NCBI GenBank assembly: GCA_000092065.1
Contig: CP000584.1
Source of the DNA: Ostreococcus lucimarinus
Lineage: Eukaryota
Length of the DNA stretch: 64,000 nucleotides
Strand: one strand, 5' to 3'
Within the stretch, counting starts at the first letter, position 1, and each line of letters starts with the position of its first letter. A model generated the notes under the pieces. The model did not search any database, was not told the origin of the DNA, and worked only from the letters and a program-made list of their open reading frames with translations. Below, one piece after another: positions 12,112-56,028 of this stretch. The position numbers and the translations under genes are program-made.

Positions 12112-12954
12112 ATGATGATGGTTCAAAGCGCGTCCACGCGCGTCCGAGCGCGCCCGAACGGCGTCGATCGACACCGCGCGACGCGTCGGACGCGCGTCGT
12201 TCGCGCCGCGGACGCCGGCGCGGATCGAGGGATGACGCGGGACGCGCGCGCGACGCGGGAGGTGGTGAGTCAACTGGGCGCGCGGCGAGACGCGAGCGCG
12301 CTGGCGCCGCGAACCGCGCACGGCGCCACGGTGGCGTACGTGCGGCAGCCGATCGAGGCGAAGAATGTGGAATTCATGACGCCGAACTTCGCGGTGTACG
12401 CGCTGTGTGGAGTGGGGTGCTTGTTGGGAAGCGCGCTGAGCGCGGTGCTGCTGAGTTTGATTCCGACGCTTCGAAGCGCGCGGCGAACGATGGATGAGAT
12501 TGCGTATCTCGCGGCGAGCGTGCGCGAGGAGGTGCCAGATACGCTCGCGGCGGTGCGTGTGAGTGGGTTGGAGCTCACGGACGTGATGGAGGAGGTTGGG
12601 GAACTGACGGCGGACGTCGGAGGAGGTTTGCGAAGCGCCGGACGCGGCATCACGGCGAGCGTGAACACGGCGCAGATGGTCGGGCGGTACGCGGCGGCGG
12701 CGGTTCCTGAGGTTCGAAGACGAGCGACACCGATCGTGGGATCGGTAAAGACTGGAACGGTGCGCGTGTTGGAGGAGCGCGCAGACATGGAACCGTACAG
12801 TGGACCCATCATATCGAACACGGCGAAGTCGGCGAAGAAGGGTGTGACGGCGGCGCGAAACGCTTTGAAATCTGCGGATGTGGCTCGAAACGTTGGTCGA
12901 TTATACAAGACGCTTCGCGCGCCGCCTGCGCGCCCAAAGGATATGCCAAAGTGA
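12112..12954 (+). CDS. Hypothetical single-pass membrane protein with a transit-peptide-like N-terminus (DUF948-like architecture?)
   Basis: ATG ORF. The N-terminus is Arg/Ala-rich, followed by one hydrophobic helix (FAVYALCGVGCLLGSALSAVLLSLI) and then helical, coiled-coil-like sequence. The family assignment is tentative. Confidence 0.55.
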   Translation: MMMVQSASTRVRARPNGVDRHRATRRTRVVRAADAGADRGMTRDARATREVVSQLGARRDASALAPRTAHGATVAYVRQPIEAKNVEFMTPNFAVYALCGVGCLLGSALSAVLLSLIPTLRSARRTMDEIAYLAASVREEVPDTLAAVRVSGLELTDVMEEVGELTADVGGGLRSAGRGITASVNTAQMVGRYAAAAVPEVRRRATPIVGSVKTGTVRVLEERADMEPYSGPIISNTAKSAKKGVTAARNALKSADVARNVGRLYKTLRAPPARPKDMPK

Positions 12955-27526: not shown

Positions 27527-30019
27527 ATGTCCGCCGCGACGAAAGCCGCCGAGCGCGACGCCCTGGAGCGACTCCAGCGCGACGTGCGCAAGCACGCGCG
27601 CGACGAGAGCGTCGAGATCGATGCCGCGCGCGGCTGGCGCGTTACGTTTACCGAGCGCAAAACGGGCGCGCAAGCGGGGACATTTTACAAAGAGTTTTAC
27701 GCCCCCGACGGCACGCGGTTTCGAAGCGCCAAAGAAGTCTGCGCGCACGTCCAACAGATTCGAGGGATGAAGCGTAAAGCGCTGAAAGCGAGCGCGGGAT
27801 CGGGAAAGGAGAAAGGAAGCGGGAAGGGCGATGGAAAGGCGAAACGGGGGAGGCCGAGCGCGAGCGCGGAAACCGAGAACGAGGCGGACGCGCTGGAGAA
27901 ACTGTACGCGTACGTGAAGAACACGGCTGGTCGTGATATACGTCATCACGGTTGGGGCGTGGTGTTCGTGGAGCGGAAGTCGGGGGCGCTGGCTGGGCAG
28001 GTGTATAAAGACTACTTGACGCCGTGCGGGAACAAAGTACGGTCGATGAAGGAGGTGATGGTGTACTTGGCGGGGGTGAAGTCGCCGCAATCGAAAAAGA
28101 AGATTCGTCGTGACGATGGGAGCGTGGAGGAGGAGATGGAGGCGGAACCGACCGAGGCGGAGCTTCAAGCGTTGGAAATGAAGATTACAGAAGAGCACGC
28201 GGCGGCGATTACCAGAGCCGTGCCAGCGTTACCGGCGCGCACGCAATCCGTGCAAGTGACTGGCCTAGAATTAGACGATGATATGGATGAGGATCGGTTG
28301 CTTGTTGAATTTAGCAACATCACCGGACTCGAACCGGTGTATGAAACCTTGGAAGAGCTGCGGGAAATGGTGAATAAAGAGCGCGCTCGGGCGGCGGCGA
28401 AAAACGAGGCGATGGAGTTCAATTTCAAGCCGCCAACGACGCGCGCGCCGCGACCTTCTCTCGAAGCGCTGCCAAATGGGCTGAGCTACGCCGCGAAGGA
28501 AGTCGATGAGACGAAGAAGGCGGATCAGTTGGCGTTAATTCAACGCTTTCAGAAGGAAAGCAAAATCATGAATAAGCTTGGAGATGCTTCCAAAGCCGAT
28601 TGGAGAGGTGAAGCGCGCGTACCGAAAGTTTTGGGAGACACATCGGTTCCGGATGTTGTGCGTGGGGGTACGCGCGCCGGAGCGACGCCCATGATTGCGG
28701 GAACGGCGGCGGAAATCAAACTTTTACCGAGCACGACTGAGATTGATTACGACGGCGCTGAGGACAGGCCTCCGTTCGATCCCACTGATACGAGCTCGGT
28801 GACGACGCTCAAGGCAGCCATGCATACATCAACGGCGCCGGATGAAGTGCGGTGTCGCGAAGATGAGCGCGCGAAAGTGATCGATTTGATTCAAGGGTGC
28901 TTGCGTGATCACAAACCGGGCAGTCTGTATCTCGCCGGACTGCCAGGGACGGGGAAAACACTCACGCTCAAAGACGTTCAGAGAACAACGGAAAGATGGG
29001 GTATCGTAGGTAAGACTCGACCCCGTGTAGCTTTCATCAACTGCATGTCCGTGCACAACGCCAAAGATATTTTTGGAGTCGTTTTAGATCAACTTGGCGA
29101 AAGAGTTGCATCTGAAGACCGAGCGCCAAGCGTGGGATCCATAGAATACAGCAATATCCCAGAAGTCGTGGCGTTGAGAAGAGTAGTGACTTCGATGAAC
29201 GGTGGAATGTGCATCATTCTGCTCGATGAGATGGATCAACTCGAAACACGAGATCAAGAGGTTTTGTACGAGCTGTTTGCTTTGCCCGCACTCAAGGGAT
29301 CACGATGCGTTTTAGCGGGAGTCTCCAACGCGATCAATCTCACCGATCGCGTGCTGCCTAGATTGCGCGCTCGTGGATGCGAGCCTGCACTCGTAACGTT
29401 TTCTGCGTACGATGCCAAGCAGCTCAAGGTATTGCTGAAACAGCGCCTCGCGGCGCTTCCATTCAAGGCTTTCGAGGACTCTGCGTTGGAATTGTGTTCG
29501 CGGAAAGTAGGCGCGGCGACGGGCGACATGCGAAAGGCGCTCAACGTGTGCGCCACCGCCGTCGACATATGCGTGCAAGAAGCGACGAAGATCTCAGAGG
29601 ATGGTAGCGAAGCGCCCGCCTCGGCCAAGGGCACTGTGAAGATTTCCCACATGGCGCGCGCGCTTTCAAAAACGTACGCATCGCCAGTCGTGGACTCAAT
29701 CCGGGCATTGCCGCAAATGCAACAGATGGTCCTGTGTTCGGCGATAAAACTTTTGAGCAGTACGCACGCCATGGAGACGACGTTAGGGGCTTTGCATGAT
29801 CGATACGTCATCACTTGCAAGACAGCCGGTGTCAAGGATCTATCTCAAGGTGAGTTCCACAACATGTGCAGCGCGCTCTCGGATCATTGTTTGGTTAAGA
29901 TTGGGAATGCGAGTAACGATCGATTGCGCAAGCTACGATTGCTCGCCACGCGAGATGATGTGGAGTTTTCACTCCAAGGTGTGAACTTCTTCCGCAACTT
30001 ATTAGGGATCAACGAGTAG
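27527..30019 (+). CDS. ORC1/CDC6-family AAA+ replication initiator with two N-terminal MBD-like domains and an AT-hook (830 aa)
   Basis: Single uninterrupted ATG ORF. The C-terminal half has SLYLAGLPGTGKT (Walker A, about 28936..28959), ILLDEMDQL (Walker B), VSNAINLTDRVLPRL, GDMRKALNVC (sensor 2) and a winged-helix tail. Features of both CDC6 (DEMDQL) and ORC1 (KAFEDSALELCSRKV) are present. The N-terminal modules are listed as separate features. Confidence 0.85.
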   Translation: MSAATKAAERDALERLQRDVRKHARDESVEIDAARGWRVTFTERKTGAQAGTFYKEFYAPDGTRFRSAKEVCAHVQQIRGMKRKALKASAGSGKEKGSGKGDGKAKRGRPSASAETENEADALEKLYAYVKNTAGRDIRHHGWGVVFVERKSGALAGQVYKDYLTPCGNKVRSMKEVMVYLAGVKSPQSKKKIRRDDGSVEEEMEAEPTEAELQALEMKITEEHAAAITRAVPALPARTQSVQVTGLELDDDMDEDRLLVEFSNITGLEPVYETLEELREMVNKERARAAAKNEAMEFNFKPPTTRAPRPSLEALPNGLSYAAKEVDETKKADQLALIQRFQKESKIMNKLGDASKADWRGEARVPKVLGDTSVPDVVRGGTRAGATPMIAGTAAEIKLLPSTTEIDYDGAEDRPPFDPTDTSSVTTLKAAMHTSTAPDEVRCREDERAKVIDLIQGCLRDHKPGSLYLAGLPGTGKTLTLKDVQRTTERWGIVGKTRPRVAFINCMSVHNAKDIFGVVLDQLGERVASEDRAPSVGSIEYSNIPEVVALRRVVTSMNGGMCIILLDEMDQLETRDQEVLYELFALPALKGSRCVLAGVSNAINLTDRVLPRLRARGCEPALVTFSAYDAKQLKVLLKQRLAALPFKAFEDSALELCSRKVGAATGDMRKALNVCATAVDICVQEATKISEDGSEAPASAKGTVKISHMARALSKTYASPVVDSIRALPQMQQMVLCSAIKLLSSTHAMETTLGALHDRYVITCKTAGVKDLSQGEFHNMCSALSDHCLVKIGNASNDRLRKLRLLATRDDVEFSLQGVNFFRNLLGINE
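27551..27757 (+). other. MBD-like module 1 (residues about 9-77)
   Basis: GWRVTFTERKTGAQAGTFYKEFYAPDGTRFRSAKEVCAHV compared with MeCP2 [40 protein letters not shown]. Confidence 0.65.
27842..27856 (+). other. AT-hook core KRGRP
   Basis: GKAKRGRPSAS lies between the two MBD-like modules. Confidence 0.5.
27881..28075 (+). other. MBD-like module 2 (residues about 119-183)
   Basis: GWGVVFVERKSGALAGQVYKDYLTPCGNKVRSMKEVMVYL. It is preceded by EADALEKLYAYV, which parallels ERDALERLQRDV before module 1. Confidence 0.65.
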
Positions 30020-30097
30020 ACTCGTTGATTGTACATACAATTCGAGACGCGATTCGACGTCGTCAAACGAGGCGCACCACACAAAACGACACGCCAA

Positions 30098-30976
30098 ATG
30101 AAAGCTTCTCTCCTCCGACCATTGACATTGACCGCTCGACTTCGCGCTGTGCATCGCGTTAAGCCGCGTCTCAACACCGCTCGCTCGCTCGTCACTCGAG
30201 CCGACGCGACAGACCAATCAGGATCAGGCGCCTTCGTGCGAGGCCAAGCTCAGTTCTCGAAATTTTACCCAAGCGAAGCGCGCGATTTCACGTTCTCGAG
30301 ACACGTGATGCTCGCCGTCGACGGCACACATGCCTCTGAAGACGCCGCACGATGGGTCATTCAAAATGTCGTTCGCTCTGGAGATCTCCTGCACTTGATC
30401 CACGTCGCCGTTCCGGAATCGTTCGGTACGCTGCGTCGCGCGACGTTGTTCACTCGGAGAGACTGACCAAAACGACAAGGAGTTTACTACCTGGGCGCTC
30501 CCGGAACGGAGATCGCAGGAAGCGAGCTGGATTGGGAACGTAAAGACGAATTCTGGGCGAGTTGCATCCGCAGAACCGAACGCATGCTCGACGGCACCGT
30601 CACCCACATCATCGGCGAAGACGCCGACGCAGGGGAAGAGATGACGCCGTTTCGTCCGCCCATCGAACTCGATTGCATCTTGGATCAAACCTGGTACGCG
30701 TCACTTGATATACGTAACGCATATTTATCAACCTTCGACAGGGAGCCCGTTGGCGAGGTTTTACTCAACAAAGCGAAAGAGTCCAACGCCGAAATTCTCG
30801 TCGTCATCAAGCATCATAAGAGCTGGGTCCAAAAAATTTTCTCGGGATCGGTGAGCGAGTACCTGATCGACAAATCTGAGATCCCCATCCTCGTGTTTCC
30901 AGCCGCGATGCCCGCGTCTTCGGAAGACTTGATCTTAGGCGACGAAGACGATCAAAGTTCCAAAGGCGCGCGTTGA
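30098..30976 (+). CDS. Universal stress protein (USP / adenine-nucleotide alpha-hydrolase) family protein, join(30098..30425,30480..30693,30742..30976), 258 aa
   Basis: RHVMLAVDGTHASEDAARWVIQNVVRSGDLLHLIHV (USP N-terminal strand-helix) and AEILVVIKHHKSWVQKIFSGSVSEYLIDKSEIPILVF (USP C-terminal motif) lie in two track ORFs (30029..30466 and 30584..30976). Two mini-introns link them, and the total of 777 nt is divisible by 3. The N-terminus MKASLLRPLTLTARL is transit-peptide-like. Confidence 0.65.
30426..30479 (+). other. Mini-intron (USP intron 1, 54 nt)
   Basis: GTACGC donor, ACTGAC at 30462..30467, AAG acceptor ending at 30479. It removes the in-frame TGA at 30464..30466, and G|GA restores a Gly codon and the downstream frame. 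Confidence 0.55.
30694..30741 (+). other. Mini-intron (USP intron 2, 48 nt, frame-preserving)
   Basis: GTACGC donor, CGTAAC branch-like box at 30713..30718, CAG acceptor ending at 30741, all within an AT-rich stretch. Its length is a multiple of 3 with no stop, so retention would insert 16 aa. Confidence 0.45.
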
Positions 30977-31069
30977 TAACTTCATTTCATTACAAAGATC
31001 CGTCATGAGATGAGAAAATGACCGAAACGATGCGAAAGAATCAAGACGAAATGTTTGAGCGCGGTTCGA

Positions 31070-31074
31070 TTACA
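31070..31074 (-). terminator. Candidate TGTAA poly(A) signal for the ankyrin gene
   Basis: The plus strand reads ttaca, 9 nt after the minus-strand TAA stop (31083..31085). Confidence 0.3.
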
Positions 31075-31082
31075 CGCCGCGC

Positions 31083-31721
31083 TTAGTGGGCGAGGATTTC
31101 GCGCACGTACTTGTACGAGTTACTCCACACAGCCTTGCAAAGATCGATGGGCAAGCACTCTTGTTTGTTCTTGATGTTCTTGTCCGCACCATTTTGTAGC
31201 AAGAGATTGACGATTTCCACGTGTCCACGCATCGCCGCCCAGTGCAGCGCGGTGTTGTCGCCCATATCCAGCGCGTCCACGTCCGCGCCTTGCTCGAGCA
31301 TGAACTTCACCGTGTGATAGTGTCCGTTGTGCGCCGCGCGCTGCAACCCAGTATCTTTCATCAATCCGCTCTGTTGAATGTCAGCGCCTTCGTTGAGCAA
31401 CAGTTCGACAACCTTCGTGTGCCCGTTGCCCGCCGCGAGCACGAGCGGAGGATCCCCGCAGTGGTCGCACTCGTTAATCGGCGCGCCTTCGTGGATGTGC
31501 TCCTTCACCCAGTCGTAATAGCCATCGACGCAGTCGCGCCAAATATTGGATTTTTCCGGGATGAATCGTCCGGTCTGCGATGCGTTCGCGTTCGTTCGTC
31601 AGTCGTCGACTCGGGAATCGCGCACGAGGGGCCTCGGACGCGCGGACGCGATCCAGCGTCGTCGCCTTTGCGCGCCTTCGCCCGCGTCGCGAGTTTCACG
31701 CACCACGAGGTCGAACGGCAT
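31083..31721 (-). CDS. Small canonical ankyrin-repeat protein, complement(join(31083..31574,31704..31721)), 169 aa
   Basis: 33-residue ANK repeats (GDPPLVLAAGNGHTKVVELLLNEGADI.., DTGLQRAAHNGHYHTVKFMLEQGADV.., GDNTALHWAAMRGHVEIVNLLLQNGADK). The track ORF starts at GTG, and the frame stays open upstream to a CAG acceptor at 31575..31577. An 18-nt exon ATGCCGTTCGACCTCGTG followed by GTGCGT fits in phase 0. Confidence 0.6.
31575..31703 (-). other. Spliceosomal intron (ankyrin gene, 129 nt)
   Basis: On the minus strand: GTGCGT donor at 31703, ACTGAC at 31603..31598, CAG acceptor at 31577..31575. Confidence 0.55.
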
Positions 31722-39169: not shown

Positions 39170-40757
39170 ATGGAGACGGAGATGGAGCAACCGCTGGCGA
39201 ACCTGGCGCGCGCGCAGGACGAGCTGCGGAACGCGCTGAGCGCGAACCTCGGGGAGCTGCGGAGCGCGCACGACGGCGTCGCGGCGGCGGCGGCGAACGC
39301 GCTCAGGGAGCGCCGGCGCGAGCGCGAGGAGAGTCGAACGGCGCTCGAGCGAGAGGCGAGCGAGCGCGCGCGGTTGGAGACGAAGCTGACGCAGTGCGAG
39401 ACGGCGCTGCGGGAGACGAAGGCGGCGCTGGGAGAGGCGCGGAGCGAGGCGAAGGAGGTGCGCGAGAACGACGGCGAGGCGAGGCGAGACGCGATTCGAA
39501 CGCGGACGAGACGCCGACGAGTCTGGAGAAGCGGCGAGGGACGGGGGGGGGGGTAGGATGTGGGATTTCATGGTTTGGGACGGTTTGGGACGGTTCGGGA
39601 CGGGGCGCGGAGGAAGGCGCGCGCGCGGAGGAAGGCGAGGGGGGGGGCGACGCGATCGCGGCGCGAGGGAGAGAAGGAGCGACTGACGAACGACGCGGCG
39701 CGCGACGAATCGATAGGCGAACCAACAATCCGCGCAAGAAATCCGAGATTTGACGCAAAAGCTTCAGTTGACGCTCGAAGAGAAGAAGAAGAACGAAGAC
39801 GCGCTGAAACAACACGGGCAAGAGCTCAAGCAGCAGCTGATCATCATGCAAACCAAGCTCGAACGGGCGGGGGAGATGGACAAGGTGAAGGAGGAGCAGT
39901 TCGCGCAACAAGAAAACCGGCATAAAGATACGGTTGAGGAGTTCAAGAAGGCTCAAACCGAGCTCAAGCTGCAGCTCCAGGACGCGCTGGCGAAGATTGA
40001 AGCCGAGCACAAGGGGATGAAGGTGCAAGAAGCCGAGGTGCTGAAGCAACGCGACGTCATCAACCGTCTCGAGGCGAAGAATGCGAGCTTGATCGCCGAG
40101 CTCGACAACACGCGCGCGCAGTGCGTGCAATGGCAACGCGAGACCGACATGGCGAAGGCTGAGATGCAACAAGCGCGAAGCGAAGCTGAAGCCGCCAAGG
40201 AGGAGCGCATGAAGGAGGAAAAGCATCGAGGCATCGCCGAGAACGAAACCGCGGACTCGCGCCGAAAGGCGGCCGAGGCCACGGCGCTCGCCGCGGACGA
40301 GAAGCAAACCAGAAAGCTCGCCGACCAAGCGTTGGAAGCTAAGCAGAACGAATTAAAGGATCTCAAGCACAAGGCGCAAATGATGGAGAAGGATTACAAG
40401 GAAATGCTCACCGATGAAAAGCAGGCTCGGGCGCAACTGGAAGAAAACTACGAGACCTTGAAGCAAGATTCGGTGAACTTGTACAACGCGTACACGAGCT
40501 CGAACCAGCAAATCGAAGAGTACCGCATCGCGCTCGAGCGCGAAGCGCAAGAAGCGGCTGCTCTGCACGCCGCGCTCGCCAAGCAAAAGGAGGACGCCGC
40601 TCGAGACGCCGTGCGCTCTCGAAGCACGCGCGTCATCGCCCCTCCCGCTGGCTTCTTGGGCGGTTCATCTCCGTCTCCTAAGCAAGACGGACGCCGCGGT
40701 GGCGCCCGCATCGGCGAAATGGACGATATCCGATCGCCGCCATCCTTCGCAGACTAG
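39170..40757 (+). CDS. Coiled-coil protein, join(39170..39457,39717..40757), 442 aa
   Basis: Track ORFs 39128..39556 and 39750..40757 are both heptad-rich (E/K/Q/A/L) and join in phase 0. ATG 39170 has the best context (A at -3, G at +4); 39128 is an alternative. No family recognised. Confidence 0.6.
39458..39716 (+). other. Spliceosomal intron (coiled-coil gene, 259 nt)
   Basis: GTGCGC donor, ACTGAC at 39682..39687, TAG acceptor at 39714..39716. It contains G-runs and a ggtttgggacggtttgggacggttcgggacgg repeat. Confidence 0.65.
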
Positions 40758-55813: not shown

Positions 55814-56028
55814 CGCGTCGTCGTCGTCGGACGTCGCGGTGTCGTCGCGTCGCGCCGCGACGGACGACGCGACGTCGCGCGACGACGGCGATGGACGCGG
55901 ATCGAACCCACGCGCACACGGACCACGAGAAAGACCCGAAAAAGACGCGCGCCCTCGCGAGGCGATTGAAGATTGCAGATTGGCGACGCCGGGACGACGC
56001 ACACGCGGGCGCGGGGACGACGCGCGCG

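Follow-up and report, generated by a model that had tools for sequence, protein, structure and literature searches.

The question raised by this locus is whether two very short segments interrupting a gene for a universal stress protein (USP) in Ostreococcus lucimarinus are spliceosomal introns and, if so, of what kind and of what age. The gene lies on the plus strand of a 64,000-nt stretch of contig CP000584.1 (GenBank assembly GCA_000092065.1), hereafter referred to as the window. An earlier note on this DNA had proposed the segments as two mini-introns, and the coordinates, donors, branch motifs and acceptors that it gave for both were found to be exact. Each segment has GT...AG boundaries and a branch-like motif upstream of its acceptor, and the explanation considered probable is that both are young U2-type spliceosomal introns, acquired by a nuclear USP gene that was ancestrally intronless. 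The gene is made up of the following parts.

30098..30425, plus strand: USP exon 1, from the ATG at 30098; encodes the first half of the Usp domain and ends in phase 1 (G/GA)
30426..30479, plus strand: USP intron 1, 54 nt; GTACGC donor, GACTGAC box, AAG acceptor
30480..30693, plus strand: USP exon 2, ending in phase 2 within an invariant Trp codon (TG/G)
30694..30741, plus strand: USP intron 2, 48 nt; GTACGC donor, CGTAAC, CAG acceptor
30742..30976, plus strand: USP exon 3, encoding the helix EPVGEVLLNKAKE and the GSVSE motif; stop codon TGA at 30974-30976

With both introns spliced out, the product has 258 amino acids (aa) and matches the Pfam Usp profile PF00582 in a single stretch (E = 4.9e-17; 63.2 bits against a cut-off of 24), with residues 68-234 aligned to profile positions 3-141 of 141. 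The host gene is a member of the universal stress protein family. A 274-aa model, in which intron 1 is removed and intron 2 kept, is identical to the O. lucimarinus CCE9901 protein XP_001417170.1 (ABO95463.1, A4RVM8). The record that carries this protein is 930,724 bp long. The reference annotation has already excised intron 1, and reads intron 2 as protein, in the form of the residues YASLDIRNAYLSTFDR. An exact look-up of the fully spliced 258-aa sequence in the protein collection found no record.

The strongest evidence on the status of the two segments comes from relatives of the gene. A protein search recovered 14 relatives. Six full-length ones (P0001, P0002, P0005, P0006, P0008 and P0009), with identities of 48-61%, are devoid of residues at both intron sites, and the junctions that they support, PESFG/VYYLG and DQTW/EPVG, are the predicted ones. 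The earlier note had suggested that its two isoforms be aligned with USP homologs, and the outcome is in favour of splicing: the spliced junctions are contiguous in all six homologs, whereas keeping intron 2 in the protein breaks the PF00582 match into two stretches. In the genomic contigs that encode three of the six (P0001, P0002 and P0006), the genes CDC6(+), USP(+) and ankyrin(-) follow one another as in the window, and USP is a single uninterrupted open reading frame (ORF); in these more distant lineages the orthologous gene therefore lacks both introns.

The syntenic orthologs L002-L009 are precisely without intron 1. It is present in two sister lineages, represented by L012 (87.5% nucleotide identity) and L010/L011 (77%), with the donors GTAGGC and GTGCGT respectively, and with the GAGAGACTGAC box and the AAG acceptor unchanged; its excision from L012 and L010 gives full-length proteins of 256 aa. 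The intron 2 site in both of these lineages is a clean 48-nt gap, and all of the distant orthologs lack intron 2 too. GTACGC is a common hexamer in the window, but the introns amount to more than its chance occurrence, because gaps in the orthologs match both segments to the base. By parsimony, each intron would have been gained a single time, intron 1 at the base of the O. lucimarinus species group and intron 2 later, in O. lucimarinus proper. Gain is favoured over loss because the latter would need at least three independent precise losses per intron.

On this evidence intron 1 (GTACGCTGCGTCGCGCGACGTTGTTCACTCGGAGAGACTGACCAAAACGACAAG) is a genuine intron beyond reasonable doubt. Its donor, GTACGC at 30426-30431, is followed by a GACTGAC box at 30461-30467, with the ACTGAC core at 30462-30467 and the branch A at 30466, and by the AAG acceptor at 30477-30479. 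If exon 1 is read onwards unspliced, translation stops at a TGA at 30464-30466 which lies within the branch box itself (acTGAc). The proposal that splicing removes an in-frame TGA is thus borne out, but the accompanying statement that it restores the frame is not: the 54 nt are 18 codons, with an identical frame on both sides, and an intron whose length is a multiple of three cannot restore one. The GC content of the intron is 57%. In the window just 13 nt separate the branch A from the 3' splice site, compared with the 20-35 nt described for O. lucimarinus (PMC2483917), with 16 nt in L020 and with 24-27 nt in L001, L014-L019 and L012. This reflects extensive variation in length: O. lucimarinus-type sequences have alleles of 54, 57, 65 and 68 nt, the reference strain carrying the shortest allele seen, and the sister lineages L012 and L010 have introns of 71 and 62 nt. 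In the alleles of 54, 57, 65, 68 and 71 nt the changes are all located downstream of the branch box and ahead of the AAG acceptor, and the GACTGAC box is invariant across all relatives that carry the intron. Intron 1 is ordinary except for its length and this hypervariable 3' spacer. It also contains a perfect 12-nt palindrome, CGTCGCGCGACG (30434-30445), of which one further copy is found in the window, at 55873-55884; shorter words of the GCGTCGCGCG type are very frequent window-wide.

One contig lacks exactly this intron. L013, from the Logan assembly of SRR22270299, spans window positions 29129-31664 and is missing precisely intron 1 (54 nt relative to the window). Outside the intron, five contigs that belong to the commonest environmental strain, and that carry an intron 1 of 65 or 68 nt, are identical to it along 2,482 nt. 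Intron 2 is still present in L013, as are the two intergenic spacers and 90 nt of the neighbouring ankyrin gene's intron. The contig is either derived from RNA, with intron 1 spliced and the ankyrin part representing read-through or pre-mRNA, or the product of a very recent and precise genomic loss of intron 1. Under both readings, intron 1 is therefore a true intron.

Variation within the species was studied in 13 sequences at least ~98% identical (the window, L001 and L013-L023), and is distributed over the gene as follows, single-nucleotide polymorphisms being abbreviated to SNPs.

USP exons, 777 nt: 8 SNPs (5 synonymous, 3 conservative); no indels in the 13 sequences
USP intron 1, 54-68 nt: 4 SNPs; alleles of 54, 57, 65 and 68 nt, and wholly absent in L013
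USP intron 2, 48 nt: 1 SNP; one 9-nt tandem duplication (57 nt, L023)

Exon 1 has 0 SNPs among these O. lucimarinus-type sequences, and exon 2 has 4, three synonymous and one changing G to R.

Intron 2 (GTACGCGTCACTTGATATACGTAACGCATATTTATCAACCTTCGACAG) probably arose by a very recent gain and has been read as protein in the reference annotation, and its splicing from at least some of the transcripts is considered quite likely; both its removal from mRNA and the efficiency of that removal we infer. As had been stated in the earlier note, its length is a multiple of three, it is free of stop codons, and its retention would insert 16 residues, YASLDIRNAYLSTFDR, directly ahead of the conserved block EPVGEVLLNKAKE. 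Because of a flanking GG, the 48-nt indel that separates O. lucimarinus from its relatives has three possible placements, one of which starts with GTACGC and ends with CAG. For a random insertion, the chance of GTRCGY...YAG occurring at any of the three placements was calculated by us to be ~1e-4. Intron 1, 215 nt upstream, has an identical donor hexamer. The candidate branch site is CGTAAC at 30713-30718, which fits the TRAC core alone and is not an ACTGAC box; it lies 24 nt from the 3' splice site, a distance that, if this is the branch site, falls within the 20-35 nt usual for the species. The description of the segment as AT-rich holds relative to the gene average (GC 0.42, or 41.7%, against 0.56 in the USP exons) but not locally: a part of exon 3, at 30759-30848, also has a GC content of 0.42, and 121 stretches of the window are equally AT-rich. 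AT-richness was consequently rejected as evidence for the intron, since comparable stretches are common in coding sequence here.

The block occurs only in O. lucimarinus-type sequences, as a single-copy 48-nt segment. It is identical in 11 of the 12 that cover it, L021 ending inside it, but this identity is uninformative because divergence between the strains is only ~1%. The variants carry more information. In L022, a C to G change at intron position +4 converts the donor from GTACGC to GTAGGC (L022 425-432, corresponding to window 30694-30699), which is the donor found in intron 1 of L012. The same change yields TGG-TAG directly after Trp181, while exon 3 is intact; production of a full-length USP from this allele therefore requires intron 2 to be spliced. 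L021, which comes from another run, ends in ...CCTGGTA, one base short of the variant site, as would fit a branch of the assembly graph at a polymorphic position. In L023 (an ENA contig, positions 1553-1609) the intron is extended to 57 nt by a 9-nt tandem duplication of CTTGATATA. A low-confidence structural model of the protein with intron 2 retained (pLDDT 55, from 7 sequences) places the insert between a strand at 171-177 and a helix at 199-210, and its position in a strand-helix loop suggests that retention might be tolerated.

A number of observations weigh against the splicing and recent gain of intron 2. It has no ACTGAC box, and a stopless length that is a multiple of three is also what would be expected of a tolerated coding insertion, the chance of these properties in an intron of comparable length and GC content being ~0.12 by our estimate. 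Ten guessed protein variants with intron 2 spliced, differing in start codon and strain background, were absent in exact look-ups among ~15 billion proteins, a weak negative as the sources are mostly DNA. Similarly, the 27-mer spanning the spliced junction had 0 hits in JGI metagenome contigs, again a weak negative given that these are mostly genomic, and the form without intron 2 was not seen among the inspected members of four clusters of near-identical proteins, whose sources are likewise mostly genomic. If L013 is RNA, intron 2 is kept in the dominant transcript, which would be evidence of poor splicing; the TAG allele of L022 could be a segregating null allele; and the decision between gain and loss depends on parsimony across metagenomic lineages. 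Much of this would be explained if only intron 1 were an intron and the 48-nt block were a lineage-specific, in-frame coding insertion that is never spliced. Such an insertion would account for the block being stopless, a multiple of three and without an ACTGAC box, for its presence in XP_001417170.1, L013 and every inspected environmental protein, for the failure of the protein look-ups and the metagenome junction scan to find an O. lucimarinus-type sequence without it, and for its location in the low-confidence model at a strand-to-helix loop, a kind of site that often tolerates insertions. This reading is nevertheless judged unlikely. It leaves to chance the coincidence of GTACGC and CAG with the exact edges of the indel and the identity of the donor to that of a proven intron 215 nt upstream; it sits poorly with a TAG at the second codon of the block in L022 when the downstream exon is intact, and with the block bearing an indel when 777 nt of exon bear none; and the lack of residues at this site in any homolog and the splitting of the Pfam match on retention also speak against it.

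A related possibility is that intron 2 is a regulated retained intron, with the 258-aa and 274-aa isoforms both appreciable and having distinct roles. This is doubtful, though slightly less so than a coding insertion. It is consistent with the weak branch site and with L013, which if RNA has intron 1 removed and intron 2 kept; in addition, retention would be invisible to nonsense-mediated decay, because the intron is stopless and a multiple of three. By contrast, the TAG allele and the allele with the 9-nt duplication imply that the retained peptide is not conserved as coding sequence. In L022 the retained isoform is not needed, and no conserved function appears to need the insert, because sister lineages without it have otherwise very similar proteins. 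Introns with these properties have been considered before: Jaillon et al. in 2008 (Nature 451:359, cited in PMC3879977) reportedly found a genome-wide depletion of stopless introns with lengths that are multiples of three, whose retention escapes nonsense-mediated decay. The common allele of intron 2 is like these introns, in that it is 48 nt long and stopless, and its retention would give a full-length protein with 16 additional residues. It is unlike them in being a single case, of which one allele already contains a stop.

The kind of intron represented at this locus is best considered together with its chromosomal setting. The USP gene lies between two neighbours, both of which serve as synteny anchors.

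27527..30019, plus strand: CDC6/ORC1-like ORF, uninterrupted, 830 aa; upstream neighbour
31083..31721, minus strand: ankyrin-repeat gene, convergent; downstream neighbour
31575-31703, minus strand: canonical 129-nt intron of the ankyrin gene, GTGCGT..CGACTGACG..CGCAG; local comparison intron

The colinearity of CDC6, USP and ankyrin genes is retained across lineages, whereas the BOC1 region of the big outlier chromosome of these algae has been described as being without colinearity (PMC3491373). The GC content of the window is 62%, unlike that of the low-GC outlier region. The index of the USP protein in EukProt is P001813; as the first four chromosomes have gene counts of 684, 489, 589 and 524 (PMC2367439), we infer that the locus is on chromosome 4 and not on chromosome 2. 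The 830-aa CDC6-like ORF has an exact match on record, in a cluster that contains O. lucimarinus CCE9901 XP_001417169.1. The length of this gene is kept in relatives (830-846 aa) and the named reference, XP_001417169.1, is just 442 aa, so the reference model may be truncated. In the ankyrin gene the intron is preceded by a first exon of 6 codons. Use of an alternative in-frame donor, GTGCGC at 31625, would leave an intron of 51 nt and a protein longer by 26 residues; the acceptor is evidently conserved, because the ORFs of the orthologs start just upstream of TGRFIPEK.

Some further features of the USP protein and its gene were noted. The N-terminus encoded by exon 1 is basic and hydroxyl-rich; residues ~1-35 (MKASLLRPLTLTARLRAVHRVKPRLNTARSLVTRA, window 30098-30210) share this character and include zero acidic residues. 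In composition this segment looks like an organelle-targeting presequence. In all of the USP homologs the N-terminus is variable in sequence but similar in character. At the other end of the gene, some environmental strains have the 3' end of the coding sequence duplicated in tandem (...SSKGAMPASSEDLGDEDDQSSKGAR), so that the acidic tail is longer by 19 residues; proteins P0037, P0089, P0104, P0106 and P0107 are variants of window 30900-30976 of this type. In a few contigs (L014 at ~6760; proteins P0007 and P0105) the frame diverges after ...DKSEI, at about window position 30885, into unrelated sequence (IYYTVVETNVRSRQ...), apparently through either a structural variant or an assembly join.

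Compared with the canonical introns found outside chromosome 2, the USP introns are similar in several respects. Among such introns of O. lucimarinus that have been confirmed by expressed sequence tags, 87% contain ACTGAC and the donor consensus is GTGCGTG (PMC2483917); the mean length of introns is ~188 nt (PMC2367439). Both USP introns have a strong donor of the GTRCGY type, the GACTGAC of intron 1 agrees with 7 of the 8 positions of GACTGACG, its distance from branch to acceptor is 24-27 nt in most strains, and the gene is located in a GC-rich, intron-poor region. The differences are that the USP introns are only 48-71 nt long, that the donor has A rather than G at position +3, that the acceptors, AAG and ACAG, depart from the preferred CGCAG, that the reference allele of intron 1 has just 13 nt between branch and acceptor, and that intron 2 has CGTAAC and no ACTGAC. 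The other introns in the window had been given as 113-480 nt long and mostly with GTGCGY donors, with which our candidates (defined by an ACTGAC box and a GTGCGY donor) roughly agree, being 129-293 nt at the best donor. Examples are 1614-1833, 22536-22828, 39458-39716 and, on the minus strand, 31575-31703. The scoring of candidates by ORF extension is too permissive in this GC-rich DNA, and these figures only bound the lengths. An apparent third short intron, at 12553-12622 (70 nt), was rejected because it lies inside an uninterrupted ORF of 280 aa.

The suggestion that the two introns form a distinct size class does not hold in that form on comparison with the small introns already known from the Mamiellales. 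These are 40-65 nt long, AT-rich and with weak signals, and are restricted to BOC1, the low-GC part of the chromosome known as the big outlier (PMC3491373, PMC3879977), which in O. lucimarinus is chromosome 2, where they are confined to the low-GC half (PMC3491373, PMC2483917, PMC3879977). The USP introns lie elsewhere and have strong donors. Nonetheless, the same spliceosome also processes these 40-65-nt introns with weak signals (PMC3491373), and because this class exists it can be said that the spliceosome of this organism is able to remove introns as small as those of USP. The view that both are members of a separate class of small introns, either BOC1-like or new, which is scattered outside chromosome 2, draws on both being less than 75 nt long and on intron 2 having a GC content of 41.7% and no strong or canonical branch motif, which fits the BOC1 definition of <75 nt and <43% GC (PMC3879977). 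It is very unlikely, as it fails on location, the window being 62% GC and chromosome 4 by gene order, and on the features of the introns themselves: intron 1 is GC-rich at 57%, has a canonical GACTGAC box and reaches 57-71 nt in other strains and relatives; both donors are of the strong GTRCGY type that is typical outside chromosome 2 (PMC2483917), as opposed to the weak GTRNGT donors of BOC1; the low GC content of intron 2 is not locally distinctive; and the two introns are mutually dissimilar. Furthermore, BOC1 introns are ancient and numerous in each gene, in contrast to the two young, lineage-specific introns of USP.

An origin of intron 2 as a copy of an introner, or from DNA of an organelle or an intron of chromosome 2, is at least as improbable as membership of a small-intron class, and marginally more so. 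Related Micromonas genomes do have introner families, including the short IE-C introners of Micromonas RCC299, which are ~67 nt long and have a GACTGACG branch (PMC3879977, PMC4540971). The USP introns resemble these in being recent, lineage-specific, polymorphic and short, intron 1 has the canonical branch box, and intron 2 appears to have arrived abruptly, as a complete and ready-made intron. However, introners form families of many similar copies, whereas the USP introns are single-copy and without detectable relatives. For intron 2, no second copy was found in the window at up to 3 mismatches (<=3), its core 24-mer occurs in 7 metagenome contigs, every one of them at the USP locus, and apart from the ambiguous GG its flanks show no target-site duplication. 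Two local sources of the sequence were also rejected: similarity of intron 2 to the flanking exon, as from a tandem duplication, is not significant (p = 0.27 upstream, 0.66 downstream), and nor is its similarity to intron 1 (p = 0.06-0.25). Within the ordinary intron population, the two USP introns are best placed at the short and young end.

The history that would unite these observations, if both segments are indeed young introns, begins with an intronless USP gene in the ancestor shared with other Ostreococcus and Mamiellales lineages. Intron 1 would have been gained first, at the base of the species group, as an intron of the canonical Ostreococcus type but unusually short, after which the spacer between its branch box and acceptor drifted freely through small indels. 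Intron 2 would have been inserted later as a unique 48-nt block with GTACGC at its start and CAG at its end. Its retention would add merely a loop of 16 residues after a beta-strand and before the helix that follows, and its splicing would give the form of the protein that is found in every relative. As the common allele is stopless and a multiple of three in length, ORF-based annotation, including the reference model, reads through it.

More speculatively, it is possible that the USP gene records the ongoing birth and death of introns in an organism without introner families. Two unrelated short introns would have been gained in succession, intron 2 after the split from a lineage with an otherwise very similar protein. 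Intron 2, still stopless and a multiple of three in length, would be half exon and half intron, in the process of acquiring its first stop, in the TAG allele, and its first length variants, while intron 1 would already be segregating a precise loss allele if L013 is genomic. If this is true, the locus would be a natural population-level system for studying the origin of introns that do not derive from transposons. To our knowledge, clear cases of recent intron gain that is not driven by introners or transposons are rare.

The significance of these results is moderate, as they concern a single locus at which the splicing of intron 2 is predicted. For annotation, XP_001417170.1 / A4RVM8 probably includes 16 residues derived from an intron, and short, stopless introns with lengths that are multiples of three represent a blind spot of ORF-based annotation in compact genomes. 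For the evolution of introns, the USP locus would offer a single gene, in a very intron-poor genome, with two gains that can be dated and with the empty sites kept in sister lineages. Together with its natural alleles, among them variants of length, a donor that creates a stop and what may be a precise loss, these could serve for studying how introns become fixed and how their splice signals and spacers relax or tighten.

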